Source: an uncultured Pseudomonadales bacterium
GTDB lineage: Bacteria; Patescibacteriota; Microgenomatia; UBA1400; PJMF01
Direction: 5' to 3'
Assembly: GCA_964574595.1 (NCBI GenBank)
Contig: CAZNOF010000009.1
Span: forward strand, 2,996 to 66,995
Length of the DNA stretch: 64,000 nt
This document shows, piece by piece, positions 14,605 to 62,392 of the stretch; position 1 is the first letter of the stretch; each line of letters starts with the position of its first letter. Position numbers and translations under genes: made by a program. The notes beneath the pieces are model-generated. The model ran no database searches and was not told the origin of the DNA. It was given only the letters and a program-made list of their open reading frames with translations.

Positions 14605-14681
14605 TGGTGAGTCAGGTGGGAATCGAACCCACGACATCCTCCTTAAGAGGGAGGCGCTCTAACCAGCTGAGCTACTGACCC
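14605..14681 (-). tRNA. tRNA-Lys (anticodon CUU), CCA encoded
   Basis: Reverse complement is GGGTCAG-TA-GCTC-AGCTGGTTA-GAGC-G-CCTCC-CTCTTAA-GGAGG-ATGTC-GTGGG-TTCGATT-CCCAC-CTGACTC-ACCA. Confidence 0.9.
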
Positions 14682-20035: not shown

Positions 20036-20062
20036 TTAGGTGCCGAATTATAGCATGCGCTG

Positions 20063-20148
20063 TGCCGAGAACAGGAATCGAACCTGCACGCCTTTTAAGG
20101 GGCACTGGATTCTAAGTCCAGCCTGTCTACCAATTTCAGCATCTCGGC
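20063..20148 (-). tRNA. tRNA-Leu (anticodon UAG), CCA not encoded
   Basis: Reverse complement is GCCGAGA-TG-CTG-AAATTGGTAGA-CAG-G-CTGGA-CTTAGAA-TCCAG, a long variable arm TGCCCCTTAAAAGGCGTG, CAGG-TTCGATT-CCTG, then TTCTCGGC-A. Confidence 0.85.
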
Positions 20149-51667: not shown

Positions 51668-53533
51668 ATGAAAAAAATAGCCTACTTTTGTCTAGTATTT
51701 TTTCTTGCATTAGGAGCCTTTTTCACTCTTTCTTCCGTTGCCTTTGCAGACAGTGATTTTTCAGTTTCCCTTCAATCAACCTACACCGTTGTAACAAACG
51801 GAAATACATTTGTTGAGCAGAAATTTGAACTCACTAACAACACTCCTACTTATTATGCCAAAGACTATGCTGTAGAAATTGGCTCGAGTAAACTCAATAA
51901 TGTCCGAGTTTCCGATAGCCAAGGAGAAATTCCCGCGAACATTGTGACTGGCGAGAACAAGACTTCTGTAGGGATCAGTTTTCGTGATCAATTAGTAGGA
52001 GAGGGGAAAAGTCGAACTTTTGTGATTACCTTTGAGAATCCAGACTCCTCACAAATTAGCGGTAACGTTTTGGAAGTGGACATTCCGAAATTACTGAAGG
52101 CGAAAGAGTACAGCAAATATAAAGTCATCGTCAAAACACCAACTCAATTTGGCAAACCTGTTCGAGTAACTCCCGGGAACTATATTTTGTCAGAAGACTC
52201 TAAAAACATTACCTTAGAGTTCAATGATTTAGGCGAACAAAGTGTGTCGGCACTTTTTGGAAACAAGCAGGTCTTTGATTTTACCGTCATCAATAATGTA
52301 GAAAACCCAACCAGCAATTTAGGGGTAGTTCAACTCGCTCTGCCACCAGATACAGCGAGACAAAAAGTCAACTACATTTCACTAGATCCGCCACCAAAAG
52401 AAATGGCCAGAGATCTAGATGGAAACTGGATAGCTACATATGAAGTTGCCGCGCAAAAGAATCTGAACGTAGCTTTGACTGGTAAAGTAATGATTACGCT
52501 AGATGGAAACCAAGAACTTTACTTAGCACCACCAAGTAACCATTTAACTCAATCGCAGCAGTATTGGGAAAGTACAAATTCGCAAATTACTCAGCTTGCC
52601 AAACAATATCCAAATCCGAAAAGTATTTATGACTATGTGGTAAACCATTTGACATATAACTATCAAAGGGGAGAAAACACAACAAATGAGCGGTTGGGCG
52701 CAGTACGTGCCCTAACAACCCCGTTGAATGCCGTCTGCCAAGAGTTTACCGATCTATTTATTGCCTTAGCCCGTGCGAATCATATTCCGGCACGTAGAGC
52801 GGTAGGGTATGCCTACACTGCCAACAGCCGATTGAGACCTCTCGGATTTGTGCAGGACACCTTACACACTTGGCCAGAGTACTATGATAAATCAAAAAAC
52901 GAATGGATTCCTATTGACCCCACTTGGGGCAATACGACTGGTGGAATAAATTACTTTGATCAATTTGACTTTAATCATGTGGTTTTCTCAATCAATGGAG
53001 AGTCGAGCACGCTACCTTACGCCGCGGGGTCGTACCGAAAGGAAAGACAGATCACAAATAATATTGAGGTGAAGTTTGGCAACGAAATGCCTTTACCAAC
53101 TCCCAGCTACCACTTAGAGCTCATTCGAAAACCGATATGGAAATCTTTCTTAAACTCACAGTACACCCTGCAAATTACCAATCAGACAGGAGTCGCTTGG
53201 TATAATATCCCCATCCAAGTCATTTCGGACAATCCGCAAGTTCAACTCGATAGTTCAGAAGCACATTTAGATTATTTATTACCATATCAAACAAGAGAAA
53301 TTTCAATCACGGCTGTGACAGCACAAAAATGGAAGTCTTATCCATTTCGCTTGACAGTCTTAGTTGATAGCCTATCATCAACCTATGATCTCAACACCAG
53401 CCTCAGCCTCCAAGGCGCGCTCGCTCCAAACGTCATTGCAATTGGCGTGGTCGGGGGTGTGGTCATCGTTGCCGCACTCACCTGGAGTGTACTGGTTTCT
53501 AGACGATCACGACACCGTTCTGTACGTCGGTAA
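51668..53533 (+). CDS. secreted transglutaminase-like protein with an intact Cys-His-Asp triad and a C-terminal TM anchor
   Basis: Signal peptide. AVCQEFTDLFIALARANHIPAR (Cys), HTWPEYY (His), IPIDPTWG (Asp). C-terminal IAIGVVGGVVIVAALTWSVLV followed by RRSRHRSVRR. Confidence 0.55.
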   Translation: MKKIAYFCLVFFLALGAFFTLSSVAFADSDFSVSLQSTYTVVTNGNTFVEQKFELTNNTPTYYAKDYAVEIGSSKLNNVRVSDSQGEIPANIVTGENKTSVGISFRDQLVGEGKSRTFVITFENPDSSQISGNVLEVDIPKLLKAKEYSKYKVIVKTPTQFGKPVRVTPGNYILSEDSKNITLEFNDLGEQSVSALFGNKQVFDFTVINNVENPTSNLGVVQLALPPDTARQKVNYISLDPPPKEMARDLDGNWIATYEVAAQKNLNVALTGKVMITLDGNQELYLAPPSNHLTQSQQYWESTNSQITQLAKQYPNPKSIYDYVVNHLTYNYQRGENTTNERLGAVRALTTPLNAVCQEFTDLFIALARANHIPARRAVGYAYTANSRLRPLGFVQDTLHTWPEYYDKSKNEWIPIDPTWGNTTGGINYFDQFDFNHVVFSINGESSTLPYAAGSYRKERQITNNIEVKFGNEMPLPTPSYHLELIRKPIWKSFLNSQYTLQITNQTGVAWYNIPIQVISDNPQVQLDSSEAHLDYLLPYQTREISITAVTAQKWKSYPFRLTVLVDSLSSTYDLNTSLSLQGALAPNVIAIGVVGGVVIVAALTWSVLVSRRSRHRSVRR

Positions 53534-55250: not shown

Positions 55251-56213
55251 ATGTCTAAAAAACTCAGTGCTATCCTTTTCTTGTTGGGCATTTTTTGTGC
55301 CTTGACCAGCTTCTCCAGTCCAGCCTTTGCGGCCTCACCGGTCCCAGCTGTAAAGAAGGTGAGTCCAACTCCCAGCCCTTCAGACATCCCGGTTGTTGCC
55401 ACCACTTCGGCAATCGCCACGGAGAGTGCAGTTGCTACTCCAGCAGCTCAAGTTGAACAAGTCATACAACAGAAAAATGACAAAGACATTACGGAAACCA
55501 CGAGTAAGCAGAAAGATAAGCTAGTTGAAATTTTGGATCAGAATCCGATCCAACCTGCTTCCTGGTACAACTTCTTACAACATGGCGTCCGCCGAGCAAT
55601 TTCCAATGGGGTACCAGCAAACATTATTGTCTTAATTCTGTTGTTTCCAGTGATCACATCCGTCATTTCATTCTCACGCCACGTAGTCGGGTTGAAAGGC
55701 TTTGGTGTTTACACTCCAGCAGTTTTAGCTGTGGCTTTTGTATCTACCGGAATTGTGAATGGAATCCTGTTGTTTGTAATCGTACTACTTGCCGCTATGT
55801 TCATGAGAAAGCTACTCAGCAGATTAAACTTACAGTATTTGCCCAGAACGGCCATGTTACTCTGGGGCGTTTCCATCGTCACACTGGTTGTTTTAATGGC
55901 TGCTTCCTTCTCACAATTTAGCAACTTATTTATTATTAATATTTTCCCATTATTAATCATCATGTTGTTAACTGAGAACTTTATGGAATCACAACTGGCG
56001 AGTAGTCAGTCAGAAGCTCTTCAGTTAACGCTAGAGACGTTGCTGACAGCAGTTGTTTGTTCTCTCATTATTAGTTCTGATCTCGTCCAAAAATACGTCA
56101 TTCTTCAACCAGAACTGACATTACTTATCGTGGCAGTGGTGAACATCATCGTTGGCCGATACTCTGGATTGAGACTCTTGGAATGGATCAGATTTCGCTC
56201 AGTAATTGAATAA
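55251..56213 (+). CDS. signal peptide + Ala/Ser/Thr/Pro-rich linker + 6-7 TM domain protein (7TM_transglut-like)
   Basis: SP MSKKLSAILFLLGIFCALTSFSSPAFA, a low-complexity linker, then about 7 TM helices. TATAAT ends 7 nt before the ATG. Confidence 0.4.
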   Translation: MSKKLSAILFLLGIFCALTSFSSPAFAASPVPAVKKVSPTPSPSDIPVVATTSAIATESAVATPAAQVEQVIQQKNDKDITETTSKQKDKLVEILDQNPIQPASWYNFLQHGVRRAISNGVPANIIVLILLFPVITSVISFSRHVVGLKGFGVYTPAVLAVAFVSTGIVNGILLFVIVLLAAMFMRKLLSRLNLQYLPRTAMLLWGVSIVTLVVLMAASFSQFSNLFIINIFPLLIIMLLTENFMESQLASSQSEALQLTLETLLTAVVCSLIISSDLVQKYVILQPELTLLIVAVVNIIVGRYSGLRLLEWIRFRSVIE

Positions 56214-56220
56214 TCATTCT

Positions 56221-57504
56221 ATGCCAAAAGCACGCGATTTATTGGGCATGAACGCCCGCAACCAGCTTTATACTTCACTCAATTCCAGTAATGCAAAGCG
56301 TTTTGGAACCTCAAAGTACGCTACGAAAATTTTGCTAGAAGGCAAGAATATTCCTACTGCCAAAGTCTTTGGGATTTTGGGAACGAATGAAGACGTCAAA
56401 GACTTTCCGTGGGAAACCATGGAGAAAAATTTTGTGGTGAAACCCTCAAATGGAAACGGTGGAAAAGGAATTGCCATTTTTAGAACCCAACAACCTGACA
56501 AGCAGCATTGGCTAGATGCCATTGGCCAATCCTGGAGTCTTGATGACATTAAACTGCACTGTGCAGACATTTTGGAGGGTGAGTACAGTACCTATGGTGC
56601 TAACCCAACCATCATTGTGGAAGAGCGCGTTCCTATTCATTCGAAATTTTTAAAGTATGTTTATAAAGGTACTCCAGATATCCGAGTGATTGTTTTTAAT
56701 CACGTCCCAGTCATGTCCATGCTGCGCTTACCTACCAAAGAATCAGAAGGTAAAGCCAACTTACACCAGGGAGCAATTGCTGTTGGAATTGATATGTTTT
56801 CAGGTGTCACAACCTTTGCCATTACGGGTGACGGCACACCCATTTCAGTATTGCCCGATTCAAAGAGAAAATTAAATGGCATCAAAATTCCATCTTGGAA
56901 ACAGGCATTAGAAATCGCTGTTCAAGCTGCTGATGCCGCCGGCTTAGTTTTCTGTGGTGTCGACCTGTTTATTCATGAAGAAAAAGGTCCCATGGTGGTG
57001 GAACTCAATGCTAATCCGGGACTTTCTATTCAACTGGCAAATCACGCCGGGCTGAGAAGACGACTTGAAAGAGTAGCTGACATTACGGTGTTGAATCCAG
57101 AGCACGGTGTGCGTATTGGGCAAGCACTTTTTGCAGAAAACTATTCCGATAAAATTAAAGCTGAAGAAGGCTTAGTAATTATCTCTCCTTTTGAAACAGT
57201 GACATTAACGGGAGACAACAAAGTAAAAGAAGAAGTTCCCGCACTGATTAATACTGGTCGATTTAGAAGTGCCATTTCCAGTGATTTAGCAAAGAAATTA
57301 GGCCTAATCGATCTCGATGATTTACTCTGGTACCAACAAGAAAAAGAAGAAGGGAAAGTACCCGTTATTGAAGTGAATTTCAAACTCAAAGATAGAAGAT
57401 CAACCGGCGCGATGGTAGTTTCTAAATCACTTAACAAGTCAAAATACCAATTAGAAATTGGACGCAATGATCTCAAAGGATTCTTAGTAGGAGAAGGAGA
57501 ATGA
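56221..57504 (+). CDS. RimK-like (alpha-L-glutamate-ligase-related) ATP-grasp ligase fused to a C-terminal retropepsin-like (Zn_protease, PF05618-like) domain
   Basis: N-terminal LLGMNARNQLY. ATP-grasp motifs VVKPSNGNGGKGI, DIRVIVF, ANLHQGAIAV, GVDLFIHEEKGPMVVELNANPGLS. C-terminal VPVIEVNFKLKDRRSTGAMVVSK...YQLEIGRNDLKGFLV. The tracked TTG at 56206 is replaced by the ATG at 56221. Confidence 0.55.
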   Translation: MPKARDLLGMNARNQLYTSLNSSNAKRFGTSKYATKILLEGKNIPTAKVFGILGTNEDVKDFPWETMEKNFVVKPSNGNGGKGIAIFRTQQPDKQHWLDAIGQSWSLDDIKLHCADILEGEYSTYGANPTIIVEERVPIHSKFLKYVYKGTPDIRVIVFNHVPVMSMLRLPTKESEGKANLHQGAIAVGIDMFSGVTTFAITGDGTPISVLPDSKRKLNGIKIPSWKQALEIAVQAADAAGLVFCGVDLFIHEEKGPMVVELNANPGLSIQLANHAGLRRRLERVADITVLNPEHGVRIGQALFAENYSDKIKAEEGLVIISPFETVTLTGDNKVKEEVPALINTGRFRSAISSDLAKKLGLIDLDDLLWYQQEKEEGKVPVIEVNFKLKDRRSTGAMVVSKSLNKSKYQLEIGRNDLKGFLVGEGE

Positions 57505-58469
57505 GCGATCTACTCACAGATTTGATCCCAACCAACTTTCAAACTGAAAAAGTGAAATTTTTTCAAGATTTTTCGTACAATCCACAACTCACTTACGTTC
57601 GCACATTTACCAAAGCAGAGCTTACTCGTTGGGGAAAACCAAACGCAGAGCTAACTAAACATGCCGAGAAAATGCTCAAGGCATACGTGCCAATCACCGA
57701 ACAAGAAACGTATGTTGATGAAGAATACATTTTACAAAAGATTGAATTATTTAACCAAATGTACCATGTCAAAGAACCAATCATTGCCAGTTTTTCCAAA
57801 CAACAGGTAACCAAATGCAGGGTTAATGGTAACCATATTTACTTTCAGCTACCAATTCGTTACACGGCCAGTAAACTAGCCGACTTACTTCGTCACGAAC
57901 TTGAAACGCACGTGTTACGTTTTCTCAACAATCAACAACAAGATTGGGGAGCCAAGAAAATTGATGGAATTAGCTTTAGAAAAACAGAAGAAGGACTAGC
58001 TGGATTACACACCCACTTATTAAGAAAAGATAAAGTCATTCGCAAAAGTTACTTAACTTACTTGGCTGTTTCTACCGCGCAAAAAGCTTCATTCTCAGAA
58101 GTATTTCGTGTGATGCGAGAACAAAAAGTTTCACCGGAAACATCCTGGAATATTGCTTTGCGAACAAAACGTGGAGTTGAGGATACATCACAACCAGGTG
58201 GACTGACCAAAGATATTAGTTATCTTGAAGGTAGTGTGCTCGTTTGGCAGTGGCTTATGAAATCAGGCAATCACGCTAAAGATTTATATATCGGCAGAAT
58301 TGGACTGGCTGACCTTCCAGATTTCCTTCCCATGGCAAAAAAAGAGAATCTCGTTTATCCTCACTTCTTAGATGACTATGAGCAGTATATTTCACACATG
58401 GATGAGATTGGAAAAGTAAATCACTTTGACCAACTCACATTTACATATGACGGAACAAACACACCTTAA
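57501..58469 (+). CDS. QEGLA-motif (DUF1704-like) protein
   Basis: KTEEGLAGLHTHLL (a QEGLA-like motif) and HELETH. ATGA overlap with the upstream gene; SD GGAGAAGGAGA. Confidence 0.45.
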   Translation: MSDLLTDLIPTNFQTEKVKFFQDFSYNPQLTYVRTFTKAELTRWGKPNAELTKHAEKMLKAYVPITEQETYVDEEYILQKIELFNQMYHVKEPIIASFSKQQVTKCRVNGNHIYFQLPIRYTASKLADLLRHELETHVLRFLNNQQQDWGAKKIDGISFRKTEEGLAGLHTHLLRKDKVIRKSYLTYLAVSTAQKASFSEVFRVMREQKVSPETSWNIALRTKRGVEDTSQPGGLTKDISYLEGSVLVWQWLMKSGNHAKDLYIGRIGLADLPDFLPMAKKENLVYPHFLDDYEQYISHMDEIGKVNHFDQLTFTYDGTNTP

Positions 58470-59427
58470 CGCCAGCTCTCGAATCATGTTTGAAGAAGCT
58501 CAAAAAATGGGTATCTCTTGTCAGACATTTGGCGATCACGAAACAGTTTTAATGAAATTGGACAACCTACAATGGTTCGTGCGTGGTTCAAGAACGTCAG
58601 CTCAATCTTCCGTTGGAAAAACCATCGCTGATTACAAGCCGCTTACTAAAAAAATCCTGACCGCCTCAAACCTTCCAACTGCAAAAGGGATAGTTGTTCG
58701 TTCGGTTGACGATCTTGATCAACTAAAAGACTTTCACTTTCCCGTCGTGATGAAGCCGCTAGCAGAGAGACATGGCAAAGGTGTTGTGGTCGGTGTAAAA
58801 GACATTCCGGCCGTGGAAGAAGAGCTTAAAAAAAGTGATCAAGCAATGTTGATAGAAGAGTCACTCAAAGGAACTGAATACCGCATCATCTGTGTAAACT
58901 ACAAATTTGTGGCAGCGGCATTTAGAAAACCTGCACACGTAGTTGGAGATGGCAAAAGGACCATTCAAGAACTCGTGACAGAAAAGAATAAACATCCATG
59001 GAGAGGTGAGGGTCATAGTAACAACCTCAGTCTGATTCAAATTGACGAGATCGTGATGGCAAATTTAGCAGAACAAAGCATGACATTGGACAGCGTTCCA
59101 TCTGCAAAACAAGAAGTGTTACTTCGAAAAACGGCTAATCTTTCTACTGGAGGAGAAGCATGGGATGTTTCAGCTGATGTATCTGACGAAAATAAAAAAC
59201 TATTTGAGGACATCGCCAAAGCATGCGATTTGAATGTGGCTGGAATCGATATGATGTGTCAAAACCTGACAGATCCAATCACTAAACAGTCACAAGCTGG
59301 AGTGATTGAAGTCAATGCGTCTCCAGGCTTAAGGATGCATCATTATCCAATGCAGGGTCAACCTATCAATGTAGCGAAAATCATTTTAGAGTTTGTTATT
59401 TCAAAGGAAAAAGTATGCCAAAGTTAG
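58426..59427 (+). CDS. stand-alone cyanophycin-synthetase-like ATP-grasp ligase (paralog 1)
   Basis: LRKTANLSTGGEAWDVSADVSDEN...NVAGIDMMC...GVIEVNASPGLRMHHYPMQGQPINVAKIILEFV closely mirrors the CphA ATP-grasp core. 5' end ambiguous (TTG 58426, ATG 58447 or 58486). Confidence 0.55.
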   Translation: MTNSHLHMTEQTHLNASSRIMFEEAQKMGISCQTFGDHETVLMKLDNLQWFVRGSRTSAQSSVGKTIADYKPLTKKILTASNLPTAKGIVVRSVDDLDQLKDFHFPVVMKPLAERHGKGVVVGVKDIPAVEEELKKSDQAMLIEESLKGTEYRIICVNYKFVAAAFRKPAHVVGDGKRTIQELVTEKNKHPWRGEGHSNNLSLIQIDEIVMANLAEQSMTLDSVPSAKQEVLLRKTANLSTGGEAWDVSADVSDENKKLFEDIAKACDLNVAGIDMMCQNLTDPITKQSQAGVIEVNASPGLRMHHYPMQGQPINVAKIILEFVISKEKVCQS

Positions 59428-60491
59428 ACGCAAATTATTTTTATGTGAATACAAAGCTAGGTGGAAGTAAGAAACGTGACGAAGTGGTCTCCTTTAGTGT
59501 GCAACTGGTTTTAGCTGAAGCAGAAAAGTTGGGCATGAAGGTGGAACACATTACCGGAACAGAAATGTTTCAGCTTGAGTGGAATGGGAAAACGACCTAT
59601 TTTCACGACAGAATTCCACTCAAAACAAGTGAGTTTGCAGTCACCACATGTATGGATAAACACTTAACAAAAATCTTCTTAGACCGTGCCGGAATTCAGT
59701 CACCAAAAGGATATTTAATTGAACAGTCGGATGATGAAGCGTATCAAAAACAAGTTTTTGATGCCTTGCAAAAACCATTAGTTGTGAAGCCCACTCGTGC
59801 CAGTCACGGAGATGGAATTACTCTAGGTGTTACTGATTTTGAAACCTATAAAATGGCTATTCAAAAGGCAATGACCGCTCGAGATTATGCAGATAGTGCT
59901 GTCGAAATTGAAGAAGAATTTACCGGAAAAGAGTACCGTATCACGGTCTCACAAGAAAAAATCATTGGCGTGATGCATCGTATTCCAGCAAACATTGTTG
60001 GCAATGGTGTTTCCACCATTACCGAACTAGTCAAAGAAAAGAATCAACATCCCTTCAGAAATTTATTTGGCGATAACGTGTACCAAGTCTATGGCAAATT
60101 GATTCTAGATGACGATGCCATCACCATCTTAAAGGAACAAGGCTTCACGCCAGATACAGTACTTCCAAAAGATCAAAAAGCCAACATTAAAAAAGTCTCA
60201 AATATGATGGCTGGTGGCGATGCCATCGATTTAACACCTGATATTCATCCATCAGTGCGAGAAATTTGTTTGAAAACCATTCAGGCTATTCCTGGATTGA
60301 GTATTGCCGGTATCGACTTTATGACCAAGGATTTGTTTGCTGAACAAACACCAGACACCTACCGAATTGTAGAAGTAAATCATAATGCTGAATTTGGCAT
60401 TCATCACTTTCCAATGATTGGTGAGCCACAAAATGCGGCTCGTGAATTTTTAACGATTTTGTTTCCTGAATTAAAAGATCGGAAAGAATAA
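59415..60491 (+). CDS. stand-alone cyanophycin-synthetase-like ATP-grasp ligase (paralog 2)
   Basis: KKVSNMMAGGDAIDLTPDIHP...SIAGIDFMTKDL...YRIVEVNHNAEFGIHHFPMIGEPQNAAREFLTILFPE. Collinear with paralog 1. Confidence 0.55.
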   Translation: MPKLDANYFYVNTKLGGSKKRDEVVSFSVQLVLAEAEKLGMKVEHITGTEMFQLEWNGKTTYFHDRIPLKTSEFAVTTCMDKHLTKIFLDRAGIQSPKGYLIEQSDDEAYQKQVFDALQKPLVVKPTRASHGDGITLGVTDFETYKMAIQKAMTARDYADSAVEIEEEFTGKEYRITVSQEKIIGVMHRIPANIVGNGVSTITELVKEKNQHPFRNLFGDNVYQVYGKLILDDDAITILKEQGFTPDTVLPKDQKANIKKVSNMMAGGDAIDLTPDIHPSVREICLKTIQAIPGLSIAGIDFMTKDLFAEQTPDTYRIVEVNHNAEFGIHHFPMIGEPQNAAREFLTILFPELKDRKE

Positions 60492-60492
60492 T

Positions 60493-61257
60493 ATGACAGA
60501 ACTGAACCTTGCACCATTTGGCATCACCCGGTCTGAAAAAGTGGTCTGGCGCTTTCCTGAACAAGCTAAAGATGTTCTAGAAAACATTAAGAGTAAATCA
60601 CTTAGAAAGTTCTTACGAAACGCAAAGGAAGCACTTGCCACTAAGTCTATACGATATGAATATAAGGTATTAAGTGATCAGGATTTTATTGATTGGTTGC
60701 CATATTACACTGAAAAGATGACAGAGAACGGATATCAAATTATTGCATCTACAGAGTGGTTACAAAAAAAACGTGACGCCGGGTTAACCGTGGAAGGCAT
60801 GTTTTTTTATAAAGATGACAAACTCGTGGGAACCGGTATTTTCACCAAGGATCAATCAGAAAAAGCCACATTTGCGTTTAAAGCGAGTGATCGAATTGAT
60901 TTAAGTAATGAAGCAAATTCATCATTAGGAGCAGTCATTGATTACCTCTTTCTAGATGAAATGGTGCAAAAACAAGTCAAAATTATTTCAGCTGGCAGAT
61001 CAAAAAATGCTTTTGGCGTATTAAACAGTTTTGGTTATTTAGACTATAAACTGCGTTTTGGCTATCAGCCATCTGTTGATCCACTGTCACCATTACTAGA
61101 AACGGTGCCTGTCAATGAACAAGGCGTGATTCTTTTTTATGGACTAAAAGATAATAAGTTAGCACTCTACGAATTCAAGCCCAAAGGTTTTGAAATTCAG
61201 TTTGAACAAGCTCGCTTTGCCACACCAGAGTTGCCATTCGTGGTGATTGAGTATTAA
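60493..61257 (+). CDS. hypothetical protein (254 aa), last gene of the ligase cluster
   Basis: ORF tightly packed 2 nt after the ligase stop. No confident motif; possibly a GNAT-like fold. Confidence 0.35.
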   Translation: MTELNLAPFGITRSEKVVWRFPEQAKDVLENIKSKSLRKFLRNAKEALATKSIRYEYKVLSDQDFIDWLPYYTEKMTENGYQIIASTEWLQKKRDAGLTVEGMFFYKDDKLVGTGIFTKDQSEKATFAFKASDRIDLSNEANSSLGAVIDYLFLDEMVQKQVKIISAGRSKNAFGVLNSFGYLDYKLRFGYQPSVDPLSPLLETVPVNEQGVILFYGLKDNKLALYEFKPKGFEIQFEQARFATPELPFVVIEY

Positions 61258-61294
61258 ATTTCTCAAGTAATTTGCTTCCATCTGTTAAAATAGC

Positions 61295-62392
61295 ATGATG
61301 TCTAAAAAAGTTGCCCTAGGGATGTCCGGAGGAGTCGATTCCTCACTGTCTGCTCATTTTTTAAAAGAGCAAGGTTTTGACGTAACTGGTGTCTACTTAG
61401 AATGCTGGCGCGCTCCTGGCTGCCGAACAGAAGAAGATCGAAAAGATGCACTGGCTGTGGCCCTACAATTAGACATTCCTTTCCAGGTTTTAGACTTCAA
61501 GCAAGCTTACAAAGACAAAGTAGTTGAGTATTTTTTTGACGAGTATCAAAAAGGCAGAACTCCAAATCCAGATGTAATGTGCAACAAAGAAATTAAATTT
61601 GGCCTCTTTTATGATTGGGCGATGGCAAATGGATTTGATTACATTGCGACTGGCCACTATGCCCAAGTTAGTCCCACATTTCAATTAATGACTTCTAAAG
61701 ATCAACATAAAGATCAGACGTATTTTCTATATCGAATGAAGAAAGAGCAGTTGAAGCATGTCTTGTTTCCAGTTGGCCATTTAACCAAGCCAGAGGTAAG
61801 AAAAGAAGCTGAAGCCCGCAAACTGGCAGTGGCGAGCAAGAAAGATTCTGTTGGAATTTGTTTTATTGGAGATATCAATGTCCACGAGTTCTTGAAAGAA
61901 CGTCTAGGCGAAAATCCTGGGAAAGTCGTAGATACGGCTGGAAATGTGATTGGTGAACATCAAGGATTGTGGTTTTACACAGTAGGACAGCGCCACGGCT
62001 TTACGATATTTCCGAAAACAATGATTGAGCAAAGTGACGGCACCAAAATAGATAAACACAATATTCCACCTTTTTATGTGATTCGCAAAAATCCAAAACA
62101 GAATGAGCTGGTAGTTGGTTTTGGAGCGGAAACCTATCAAGCAGATTTCACTGTCAAAGATATTCATTGGATTATTACCGAACCTGTAACCACATCACTA
62201 CTCGTCAGAATTCGTCACACTGGTCAGCTCTTTCCTTGCCAAGTAGAGAAGAGCGAAAATGAATTGAAAGTTACTTTAGATGAATCAGTTCAAGGTATTG
62301 CGGAAGGTCAATCAGCCGTTTTTTACACCCCGACTCCTGATTCCAAAGACGAAACCTACATTTGTTTAGGTGGCGGTGTGATCACGCTTTAG
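61295..62392 (+). CDS. mnmA: tRNA-specific 2-thiouridylase
   Basis: PP-loop ALGMSGGVDSS, catalytic Cys region CNKEIKFG, 365 aa. Confidence 0.85.
   Translation: MMSKKVALGMSGGVDSSLSAHFLKEQGFDVTGVYLECWRAPGCRTEEDRKDALAVALQLDIPFQVLDFKQAYKDKVVEYFFDEYQKGRTPNPDVMCNKEIKFGLFYDWAMANGFDYIATGHYAQVSPTFQLMTSKDQHKDQTYFLYRMKKEQLKHVLFPVGHLTKPEVRKEAEARKLAVASKKDSVGICFIGDINVHEFLKERLGENPGKVVDTAGNVIGEHQGLWFYTVGQRHGFTIFPKTMIEQSDGTKIDKHNIPPFYVIRKNPKQNELVVGFGAETYQADFTVKDIHWIITEPVTTSLLVRIRHTGQLFPCQVEKSENELKVTLDESVQGIAEGQSAVFYTPTPDSKDETYICLGGGVITL

Follow-up and report, generated by a model that had tools for sequence, protein, structure and literature searches.

What could two adjacent genes contribute to a bacterial operon if each encodes a protein that resembles the grasp domain of cyanophycin synthetase (CphA) alone? 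The enzyme is known as a rare example of a template-free polymerase of amino acids and, to our knowledge, its G domain has been characterised so far solely within the multidomain proteins CphA1 and CphA2. The question is raised by a DNA stretch of 64,000 nucleotides (hereafter the window), in which a sequence-only reading had described two adjacent proteins of 333 and 358 aa resembling the CphA grasp domain; both ORFs and all of the quoted motifs were found in our study. Grasp A is an intact ORF on the forward (+) strand (58426..59427), with 333 aa when read from TTG, although an ATG at 58447 (326 aa) is favoured by the database copy P0001 and by the family alignment and is probably the true start. 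Grasp B (59415..60491, +) is an intact ORF of 358 aa that starts with ATG, is preceded by AAAGGA, and overlaps the end of grasp A by 13 nt. On the same strand, the elements of A are the K71 motif (58630-58650), the P-loop KPLAERHGKG, which includes H116 (58744-58782), R153 (58873-58890), R167 (58915-58938), the large loop LRKTANLSTGG (59122-59154), D275 (59239-59256), and EVNASPGLRMHH (59305-59343). Their counterparts in B are the P-loop KPTRASHGDG (59778-59816), R175 (59928-59945), R189 (59970-59993), the loop KKVSNMMAGG (60186-60218), D301 (60306-60323), and EVNHNAEFGIHH (60369-60407).

The likeness of both proteins to the CphA G domain is far beyond chance. The CphA profile TIGR02068 matches A with E 2e-95 (321 bits, cutoff 850; model positions 150-474 of 862) and B with E 9e-67 (226 bits, same cutoff; positions ~150-475 of 862), and the closest solved structures are those of CphA1 (7wac and 7lg5, E 3e-54 and 3e-45; 7wac for A). 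CphA2 structures match A with E 4e-39 to 2e-42, with the grasp region alone aligned. The AF2 model of B (pLDDT 92) has TeCphA1 and GshF as its top structural matches, superposing on substrate-bound TeCphA1 with TM 0.77 (E 5e-29) and on GshF with TM 0.79, while D-Ala-D-Ala ligase (Ddl) and RimK trail ~18 orders of magnitude behind. Profiles of GshAB (NF002688, TIGR01435) match A and B with E 3e-64 and 3e-61 (218 and 208 bits, cutoff 425), covering the C-terminal module only; that of Ngg (TIGR03103) gives E 2e-47 and 2e-44 (162 and 152 bits, cutoff 569), and that of RimK (TIGR00768) 51 and 54 bits (cutoff 143). Full-length best matches to Ddl or to carbamoyl-phosphate synthase were the outcome named beforehand as contrary; such matches are weak and partial (Ddl profiles: E 1e-6 to 1e-13, ~100 residues aligned, far under cutoffs) and the structural fit is poor (Ddl structures against the B model: TM 0.41-0.47, E ~1e-10), so that both identities were rejected. 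Profile searches found neither the C-terminal Mur-ligase-like domain, as had been stated, nor the CphA N domain in either protein. Judged by their sequences, A and B are stand-alone ATP-grasp proteins of the CphA-G / GshF clade that consist of the grasp domain only, in line with the CphA-like stand-alone ligases of the earlier reading.

The two proteins are mutually similar (BLASTP: 29% identity over 331 columns, E 4e-43), but their description as a tandem duplication does not hold if a recent event is meant. Identities are 60% within the A family, 44% within the B family, 29% between A and B, and 35% between A and CphA, and in a neighbour-joining tree (distance-based, unrooted apart from the midpoint) A and B form separate clades. 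A recent duplication was consequently rejected: at 29% identity, A and B belong to two old, long-separated families.

The genes that surround the pair are all read in the same direction and either overlap or are separated by gaps of 2-39 nt. The first is an RloB-like 7TM_transglut membrane protein (55251..56213, +; PF14402 E 4e-31) with a signal peptide and a low-complexity linker; its match to the RloB model NF052267 is confined to model positions 315-506, and profile searches found no inactive-transglutaminase domain. In related loci this gene is conserved directly upstream of an RloC-like gene, which in the window (56206..57504, +) encodes an ATP-grasp domain (ATPgrasp_ST / TIGR02291) followed by a C-terminal retropepsin-like domain of the RloA/RimB type (about nt 57088-57504, +). 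The NCBIfam scores of these two genes are under cutoff (236 versus 314 bits and 68 versus 900 bits). The retropepsin-like domain carries NTG in place of the catalytic DTG (57241-57270); the orthologous fusion of one related locus (L071) matches PF05618 and keeps DTGA, and the D48N mutation makes RloA inactive (PMC11957051). The domain in the window is thus predicted to be catalytically dead. We also observed that RloC-like C-termini often read ...GENE or ...GEGE, with 15 of 23 full-length proteins (window excluded) ending in E; this acidic C-terminus, which is not universal, is no more than suggestive of a possible ligase target.

Next comes a metallocarboxypeptidase of the MATCAP/QEGLA family (DUF1704; 57501..58469, +; PF08014 E 1e-24, TIGR02421 E 1e-29), with the motifs HELETH (57894-57911, +) and EEGLAG (57987-58004, +); in 18 related loci it is the neighbour of A. 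Enzymes of the MATCAP/TMCP type take off a Tyr or Glu at the C-terminus and also trim polyGlu chains (PMC10499314). Downstream, a 254-aa ORF that we call C254 (60493..61257, +) begins 2 nt past the stop codon of B. Searches of Pfam and NCBIfam profiles gave no match for it, and its AF2 model (pLDDT 96) shows a GNAT-derived, Fem-like fold. The top Foldseek matches in the PDB are the aminoacyl-tRNA-dependent peptide synthases Sbb17/Sba18, FemX, the aaPGS domain of MprF, L/F-transferase, and ATE1, a resemblance that is significant but moderate (E 2e-8, TM ~0.5). Its remote relatives have weak FemAB_like and Acetyltransf_6 matches, and three of them are fused to ATP-grasp domains and also adjoin 7TM-RloC genes. 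According to the model, C254 is most similar to aminoacyl-tRNA-dependent transferases rather than to acetyl-CoA GNATs. As for other elements, a promoter and terminator scan of 51-63 kb was uninformative, since its counts were not above those of shuffled sequence, and Rfam and tRNA scans found nothing but three distant tRNAs.

Our study identified ~20 loci in Patescibacteria that share the order 7TM(RloB-like) - RloC-like grasp/retropepsin - MATCAP-like - A - variable slot - MnmA. The first four genes are adjacent in 18 related loci as well as in the window, three loci (L003, L004, and L018) have the order A-MATCAP, and MnmA follows the slot wherever downstream sequence is visible, except in L014. 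Between A and MnmA, the slot is filled variously by B and C254 (each in 0-2 copies), RimK, an additional MATCAP, an aminopeptidase of the M29 family, or more A-like paralogs. B occurs in 12 of ~21 related loci (window counted) and is thus optional, which makes an obligate A/B heterodimeric polymerase, as had been suggested earlier, unlikely. In L025 an active stand-alone retropepsin takes the place of MATCAP, which suggests that the two kinds of peptidase can substitute for each other. In L024 the position of A, after 7TM-RloC-MATCAP, is occupied by an 843-aa full-length CphA-like protein with N, G, and M domains (grasp + Mur_ligase_M + Mur_ligase_C), whose G domain forms the sister branch of the A clade. 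It is important to consider that the module is flanked by UvrA-TG-UvrC and by MnmA, and that gene order is generally conserved in small Patescibacteria genomes, so that adjacency is weaker evidence here than usual. The variability of the slot, together with A-like genes that are paired with RimK or MATCAP outside CPR, argues for a real linkage. Within this arrangement, A is the conserved core of the pair.

Which residues the two ligases could join was addressed by a residue audit of 30 A, 34 B, and 11 CphA sequences in TeCphA1 numbering, with the roles in ATP, Mg, and Asp binding and in primer reading taken from PMC9427784. K220, K261, R309, R323, N394, G398, G399, D431, E450, and N452 are invariant in all of them. 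All 30 A sequences keep S396, G456, and R458, and most, including that of the window, keep H267; the A of the window conserves every ATP-, Mg-, and Asp-binding residue of TeCphA1, and its set for the incoming aspartate (R323, N394, S396, G456, R458, and H267) is complete. These residues are compatible with the use of Asp but are not proof of Asp specificity. The B of the window conserves the catalytic K, K, R, R, N, D, E, and N and differs at three positions of the aspartate set (R458 to G, G456 to E, and S396 to M); other B subclades have D, C, A, F, N, S, or I at position 458. Co-resident paralogs also differ there, with D and S in L015 and R, E, and Q in L019. B is accordingly best described, from its residues and its distribution, as an optional accessory with an altered nucleophile pocket, and the previous suggestion of paralogs that add different residues fits this analysis.

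We give about even chances to the reading in which A and B are successive template-free ligases of an Rlo-type operon whose products build and shorten an acidic oligopeptide or a peptide tail at a C-terminus. Homology, domain content, conserved residues, and the conserved and variable parts of the gene order are observed; what the enzymes act on, in which sequence they work, and what serves as acceptor we infer as follows. A would use ATP to phosphorylate the C-terminal alpha-carboxylate of an acceptor, as CphA1 does, and add L-aspartate or a close analogue, the acceptor being other than the Arg-decorated end of cyanophycin. B would perform the same chemistry with a different nucleophile, because the Arg that binds the alpha-carboxylate is gone. 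The Fem-like C254 would add one more residue, probably from aminoacyl-tRNA, and the MATCAP-like enzyme would strip C-terminal residues. It has been reported that RloA cuts runs of at least 8 Glu and that the loss of RloA proteases is suppressed by deletion of rloB or rloC, and the authors of that work infer polyGlu peptides or polyglutamylated proteins as RloA substrates (PMC11957051).

The same ligases could instead form a split cyanophycin-like polymerase, in which A extends poly-Asp and B, the Fem-like protein, or both stand in for the M domain to make a reserve or envelope polymer. That A equals CphA1 at all Asp-recognition residues speaks for this possibility, and the full-length protein of L024 is no less compatible with a cyanophycin-type polymer than with a tail; in addition, the alpha-carboxylate Arg of B is replaced, often by Asp or by an adjacent Glu, a change that could accommodate a cationic substrate. 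We nevertheless consider it unlikely. E215, which TeCphA1 requires for recognising the Arg side chain of its primer (PMC9427784), is replaced by T66 in the A and by T in the B of the window, by T, S, or V across the A family, and by T or S in L024 itself, and there is no N domain to anchor the polymer. Moreover, B is missing from ~40% of the loci, five of which lack both B and C254; it keeps the acyl-phosphate geometry of the G type (R309, R323) with nothing M-like, and no cyanophycinase was seen among the genes of the operon.

A distinctly less probable reading is the synthesis of small molecules in the manner of GshF or Ngg, with A and B making free di- or tripeptides as dipeptides or osmolytes and C254 acting as an N-acylating partner. 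The strong matches of both proteins to the GshAB and Ngg grasp modules, the B model, which fits GshF as well as CphA1, the GNAT-fold gene next to B, and the osmotic phenotype of Rlo (PMC11957051) are all in line with it. These GshAB and Ngg scores are, however, far under the family cutoffs. H267 and R458 are the residues that separate CphA1 from GshF, which has Y/F at 267 and M/Y at 458: A and B of the window both have His at 267, and at 458 A has R and B has G, making A CphA-like rather than GshF-like. C254 resembles aminoacyl-tRNA transferases and not acetyl-CoA GNATs, neither a glutamate-cysteine ligase nor an AsnO-type amidotransferase lies nearby, and the carboxypeptidase, the retropepsin domain, and the 7TM protein that are linked to the pair suggest that peptides are involved.

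The tailoring of cell-wall precursors, in which the ligases and the Fem-like transferase would modify stem peptides or an envelope polymer that an upstream secreted TGase-core protein cross-links, is very improbable: it accommodates the FemX- or MprF-like fold of C254, the glycosyltransferase found inside the slot of L011, the conserved TGase-core protein with its intact Cys-His-Asp triad, and the altered cell shape and beta-lactam sensitivity of Rlo mutants (PMC11957051), but no gene belongs by sequence to the Mur, Ddl, or Fem families, UvrC separates the TGase gene from the module, so that their linkage may merely reflect conserved genome order, and the chemistry of A, by homology, extends a C-terminal carboxylate, unlike the formation of stem-peptide branches. 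Two further candidates were rejected: a RiPP or graspetide system, since gaps of 2-39 nt leave no space for a precursor-peptide ORF within the operon and the grasp family is not of the graspetide type, and an anti-phage defence system, with none of 6 proteins matched by PADLOC.

Returning to the successive ligases of an Rlo-type operon, a bolder version may be stated, which as a whole we hold to be unlikely. Patescibacteria might possess a bacterial tail code on acidic peptides or on the C-terminal tails of proteins, in which the RloC-type ligase writes, A, B, and the Fem-like enzymes, in a repertoire that varies from lineage to lineage, extend or cap, the dead retropepsin reads, and MATCAP erases. 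The system would then be a prokaryotic counterpart, possibly the source, of the eukaryotic TTL/TTLL-MATCAP tubulin cycle, and an exchange of the G domain with cyanophycin synthetase, in one direction or the other, would have involved this lineage.

Literature searches (cyanophycin synthetase-like ATP-grasp, DUF1704, and cyanophycin synthetase in Patescibacteria) found no description of these proteins. A represents a conserved family made of the G domain only, with the full aspartate-recognition set, and B a diversifying sister family with a rewired pocket. If the proposed mechanism is true, they would provide small, soluble, single-domain enzymes in which to study the selection of acceptor and incoming residue by G-type ligases, a handle on the product of the Rlo system, and a bacterial case of ATP-grasp tail ligases that operate together with MATCAP peptidases. 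This system occurs mostly in uncultured bacteria with small genomes, where an investment of seven genes implies an important envelope or regulatory role.

Among known systems, the G domain of CphA1 (7wac/7wae, 7lg5) shares with A and B the ATP-grasp subfamily, the three-lobed fold, and the residues for ATP, Mg, and the acyl-phosphate; CphA1, however, combines N, G, and Mur-ligase M domains in ~850-900 aa and its operon context is not Rlo-like with MATCAP, whereas A and B are grasp domains of ~330-360 aa in precisely such a context. CphA2 (7ta5, 8fxh) is homologous to A and uses only the active site of its G domain, but its ~630 aa also include an N domain and a truncated M domain, both absent from A and B, and it polymerises beta-Asp-Arg dipeptides. 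GshF/GshAB (3ln6, 3ln7) and Ngg (TIGR03103) contain sister grasp modules, which attach a single amino acid to the carboxylate at a C-terminus; they make small molecules, GshF (gamma-Glu-Cys + Gly) being fused to glutamate-cysteine ligase and Ngg (N-acetylglutaminylglutamine) to a GNAT, whereas A and B are unfused, and the discriminating residues of GshF are matched by neither protein of the window.

The RloABC system of Pseudomonas aeruginosa (PMC11957051) has the RloB-type 7TM protein, the RloC-type ATP-grasp, and the RloA/RimB-type retropepsin that are also present upstream of A, and the logic of RloABC and of RimK/RimB, a ligase paired with a peptidase on acidic tails, is common to the operon of the window. 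It differs in that the 7TM protein of the window lacks the inactive transglutaminase domain and the retropepsin is fused, with NTG and not DTG, and in that the MATCAP-type carboxypeptidase, the CphA-G-type ligases, and the Fem-like transferase are additions with respect to the described Rlo system. Finally, the cycle of tubulin tails sets TTL/TTLL ATP-grasp ligases against MATCAP/TMCP carboxypeptidases (HExxxH/EEG), and the window pairs similar types; TTL/TTLL belong to other ATP-grasp families than A and B, and the likeness to the tubulin cycle is an analogy based solely on gene content.

The two stand-alone, CphA-type ATP-grasp ligases, here called A and B, belong to a tightly packed run of seven genes on the + strand (55251-62392), where each gene either shares 4-23 nt with the next or is spaced from it by 2-38 nt: a 7TM protein (55251-56213), an RloC-like ATP-grasp protein (56206-57504), a MATCAP-like peptidase (57501-58469), A (58426/58447-59427; 333 aa from a TTG start, or 326 aa if read from the ATG chosen in its database copy, P0001), B (59415-60491; 358 aa), a 254-aa ORF that we call C254 (60493-61257), and MnmA (61295-62392). 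No further paralog of A or B was found elsewhere within the 64-kb window. Farther upstream, between UvrA and UvrC in an order conserved across related genomes, a 621-aa protein (51668-53533) combines a signal peptide and a C-terminal membrane anchor with a transglutaminase core whose Cys (VCQEF, 52733-52747), His (52862-52885), and Asp (52913-52927) are all intact. Mechanical calling starts the UvrC ORF at a TTG (53364) that puts its first 170 nt (53364-53533) inside the end of this gene, so the true UvrC start probably lies downstream. In addition, the Rfam/ARAGORN scan of the window matched solely three tRNA genes, Arg-TCG (224-300), Lys-CTT (14605-14681), and Leu-TAG (20062-20148), all unrelated to the operon.

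Every motif quoted in the sequence-only reading was found in A and B, and its statements that the two are homologous (29% identity, E 4e-43) and lack the Mur-ligase-like M domain were confirmed; the N domain of cyanophycin synthetase is missing too. Pfam returned generic ATP-grasp models only. In NCBIfam, the best model for both was TIGR02068, cyanophycin synthetase (E 2e-95 for A and 9e-67 for B), matched only over model positions ~150-475 of 862 and far under the cutoff score, followed by the grasp modules of GshAB (C-terminal) and then N-acetylglutaminylglutamine synthetase; matches to D-Ala-D-Ala ligase, RimK, and CPSase-like models were weak and partial. The closest solved structures were those of CphA1 (7wac, 7lg5; E 3e-54 and 3e-45), with CphA2 and GshF next. 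The AF2 model of B (pLDDT 92) superposed over ~326 columns on substrate-bound TeCphA1 with a TM of 0.77 and on GshF with a TM of 0.79, and gave E ~1e-10 and TM 0.4-0.5 against Ddl and RimK. The proposed CphA-grasp identity therefore stands over a Ddl or CPSase-type one, because CphA1 and GshF are best in both sequence and structure, Ddl is structurally distant, and the Ddl, RimK, and CPSase matches are weak. Membership tests placed A and B outside CphA1, CphA2, GshF, Ngg, RimK, and Ddl alike; even so, both would clearly act in the manner of the CphA/GshF grasp module.

At E<1e-10, A has 307 database relatives; the best 120 of these are 52-66% identical, all ~290-340 aa long, and labelled Woesebacteria or Patescibacteria wherever a credible name is given, with "cyanophycin synthetase" as their JGI automatic name. 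The 191 relatives of B span ~330-410 aa and 28-78% identity. Mean identity on G-domain columns is 60% for A-A, 44% for B-B, 29% for A-B, 35% for A-CphA, and 31% for B-CphA, and in a neighbour-joining tree A forms a tight clade beside canonical CphA G domains; B forms a clade of its own that branches deeper and shows more diversity. Because identities and tree both split the two families, the earlier description of A and B as tandem duplicated is misleading.

In TeCphA1, K220 and K261 bind ATP, H267 and R309 stabilise the acyl-phosphate, D431 and E450 bind Mg, and G456 forms the oxyanion site; R323 and N394 hold the beta-carboxylate of the incoming Asp in a pocket lined by S396, R458 holds its alpha-carboxylate, and E215 reads the primer Arg side chain, with H267, E215, and R458 telling CphA1 from GshF (PMC9427784). 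We aligned 30 A-family, 34 B-family, and 10 full-length CphA sequences with TeCphA1. K220, K261, R309, R323, N394, G398, G399, D431, E450, and N452 are invariant throughout, and since these ten positions are shared by A, B, and CphA, both ligases look catalytically competent. The A family agrees with CphA at S396, G456, and R458 (motif PGLRMH), mostly keeps H267, and has T, S, or V at position 215. In the B of the window, H267 is kept, and M stands in place of S396, E of G456, and G of R458. From one B subclade to another, the residue at 458 ranges over D, C, A, G, F, N, S, and I, and the two or three paralogs of a single locus differ there (L015 has D and S; L019 has R, E, and Q). From these residues we infer that the nucleophile of A would be Asp or a close analogue and its acceptor something other than a beta-Asp-Arg end, and that B would be a diversifying family using other nucleophiles.

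A scan with an A profile, one genome per species, yielded 69 loci (L handles), annotated by phmmer with the window proteins, to which further loci were added. The window and 18 Patescibacteria-type loci share the order transglutaminase-core protein, UvrC, holin-like protein, 7TM, RloC-like, MATCAP, A, swapped to A-MATCAP in L003, L004, and L018. Some of the MAG records that show this gene order carry the names "uncultured Pseudomonadales", "Vitreimonas", or "Limisphaerales", a taxonomy that seems to be mis-assigned. MnmA follows in every locus with visible downstream sequence except L014, where no copy turned up within 10 kb. Between A and MnmA, the slot is empty in L003/L004, L018, and L025, and elsewhere holds one RimK (L010); C254 (L012); C254 and a GT4 glycosyltransferase (L011); two C254 (L001); B (L007); B and C254 (the window, L023, L069); C254 and B (L009); a weak C254-like protein, C254, and B (L016); B and two C254 (L020); a DUF3541 protein, B, and two C254 (L013); B, a second MATCAP, and two C254 (L006); a Fem-like protein, C254, an M29 aminopeptidase, and two B (L015); or two further A-like paralogs, C254, and a Fem-like protein (L019).

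The A position itself varies: in one Patescibacteria genome (L024, 9644-12175), 7TM, RloC, and MATCAP are followed by an 843-aa protein with grasp, Mur_ligase_M, and Mur_ligase_C domains, that is, the full N-G-M cyanophycin-synthetase architecture, with T at the E215 position and a G domain branching beside the A clade. This protein and the Asp-recognition site of A favour a split cyanophycin-like polymerase, the main rival reading; we consider it unlikely, as B is optional (12 of the ~21 informative loci, window included, have it), E215 is lost, and the N domain is missing. In L025 (9545-9949), the place of MATCAP is taken by a free-standing retropepsin of 134 aa whose DTGA is intact, and either type of peptidase may serve in the module. 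A Paceibacterota variant (L053:4155-12017, L071:3024-9726) has 7TM, an RloC whose retropepsin is active, a MATCAP-like protein of 477 aa that carries HExxxH, a RimK/GSH-S-like grasp of 310 aa, and a tandem of two or three CphA-G-like ligases, giving four or five consecutive ATP-grasp genes. Outside the CPR, A-like genes adjoin RimK-type ligases (L021, L022) or lie near RimK and a 663-aa MATCAP protein (L002/L017).

C254 has no family match in Pfam or NCBIfam and belongs to a small family: a word search gave 38 relatives, and a search of 1.84 billion representatives gave 310 clusters at E<1e-3. Foldseek with its AF2 model (pLDDT 96) found best the aminoacyl-tRNA-dependent peptide synthases Sbb17 and Sba18 (E 2e-8), together with FemX, the MprF aminoacyl-phosphatidylglycerol synthase domain, L/F-transferase, and ATE1 (TM ~0.5); remote relatives match FemAB_like or Acetyltransf_6 weakly. 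On this modelled fold, we read C254 as a putative Fem-like amide-bond-forming enzyme. Three relatives (database proteins P0354, P0361, P0380; 554-795 aa) are fused behind an ATP-grasp domain, and at L074:2666-5053 such a fusion comes after a pair of genes for a 7TM_transglut protein and one of ATPgrasp_ST/RimB-like type. In P0410 (1707 aa), a C254-like domain occupies residues 157-365, with no Pfam match elsewhere in the protein.

The operon is real, conserved, and mechanistically suggestive; no description of it or of the stand-alone A and B families was found in the searchable literature, and a 2009 amidoligase survey may cover related neighbourhoods. On homology, residue conservation, and gene linkage, the most likely reading, with about an even chance, is a template-free multi-ligase module, whose substrates and order of steps we infer. 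The RloC-type ligase would make or lengthen an acidic (Glu-type) peptide or tail, A would join Asp to its C-terminal carboxylate via an acyl-phosphate, and B and the Fem-like protein would add lineage-specific residues; the MATCAP-like enzyme, or the retropepsin in L025, would trim the product, a dead retropepsin domain would bind the acidic chain, and the 7TM protein would export the product or couple it to the membrane. Synthesis of a small-molecule dipeptide or osmolyte fits the peptidases and the residue pattern less well and seems improbable. Cell-wall tailoring, with the same poor fit, is more improbable still.

The genes upstream of A recall known systems. The 7TM protein hits PF14402 and aligns with the RloB model over the C-terminal half of that model, with the usual inactive transglutaminase-like domain not found in Pfam or NCBIfam, and the protein after it matches ATPgrasp_ST and TIGR02291, the RloC type. 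Deletion of rloB or rloC suppresses the hypo-osmotic lethality of a triple protease mutant, and RloA cuts Glu runs of at least 8, with polyGlu peptides or polyglutamylated proteins inferred by those authors as substrates (PMC11957051). The C-terminal ~140 residues of the RloC-like protein (57088-57504) align with orthologue extensions matching PF05618 (RimB/RloA retropepsin); the motif is DTGA in the Paceibacterota orthologues of L053 and L071 and NTG in the window clade (57241-57270), a change identical to that of the engineered RloA D48N, used as an inactive control (PMC11957051). The HELETH and EEGLAG motifs of the MATCAP-like protein fit the HExxxH and EEG motifs of MATCAP/TMCP carboxypeptidases, which strip Tyr or Glu from C-termini and trim polyGlu chains (PMC10499314). 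Acidic C-termini (...GENE, ...GEGE, or ...SSGE) are frequent in RloC-like proteins (window 57454-57504; orthologues L001-L025), and 15 of the 23 full-length ones in the loci, plus that of the window (...GEGE), end in Glu, a pattern that is not universal. Such an end may be a self-modification site by analogy, as it resembles the Glu-Glu end that RimK extends on ribosomal protein S6.
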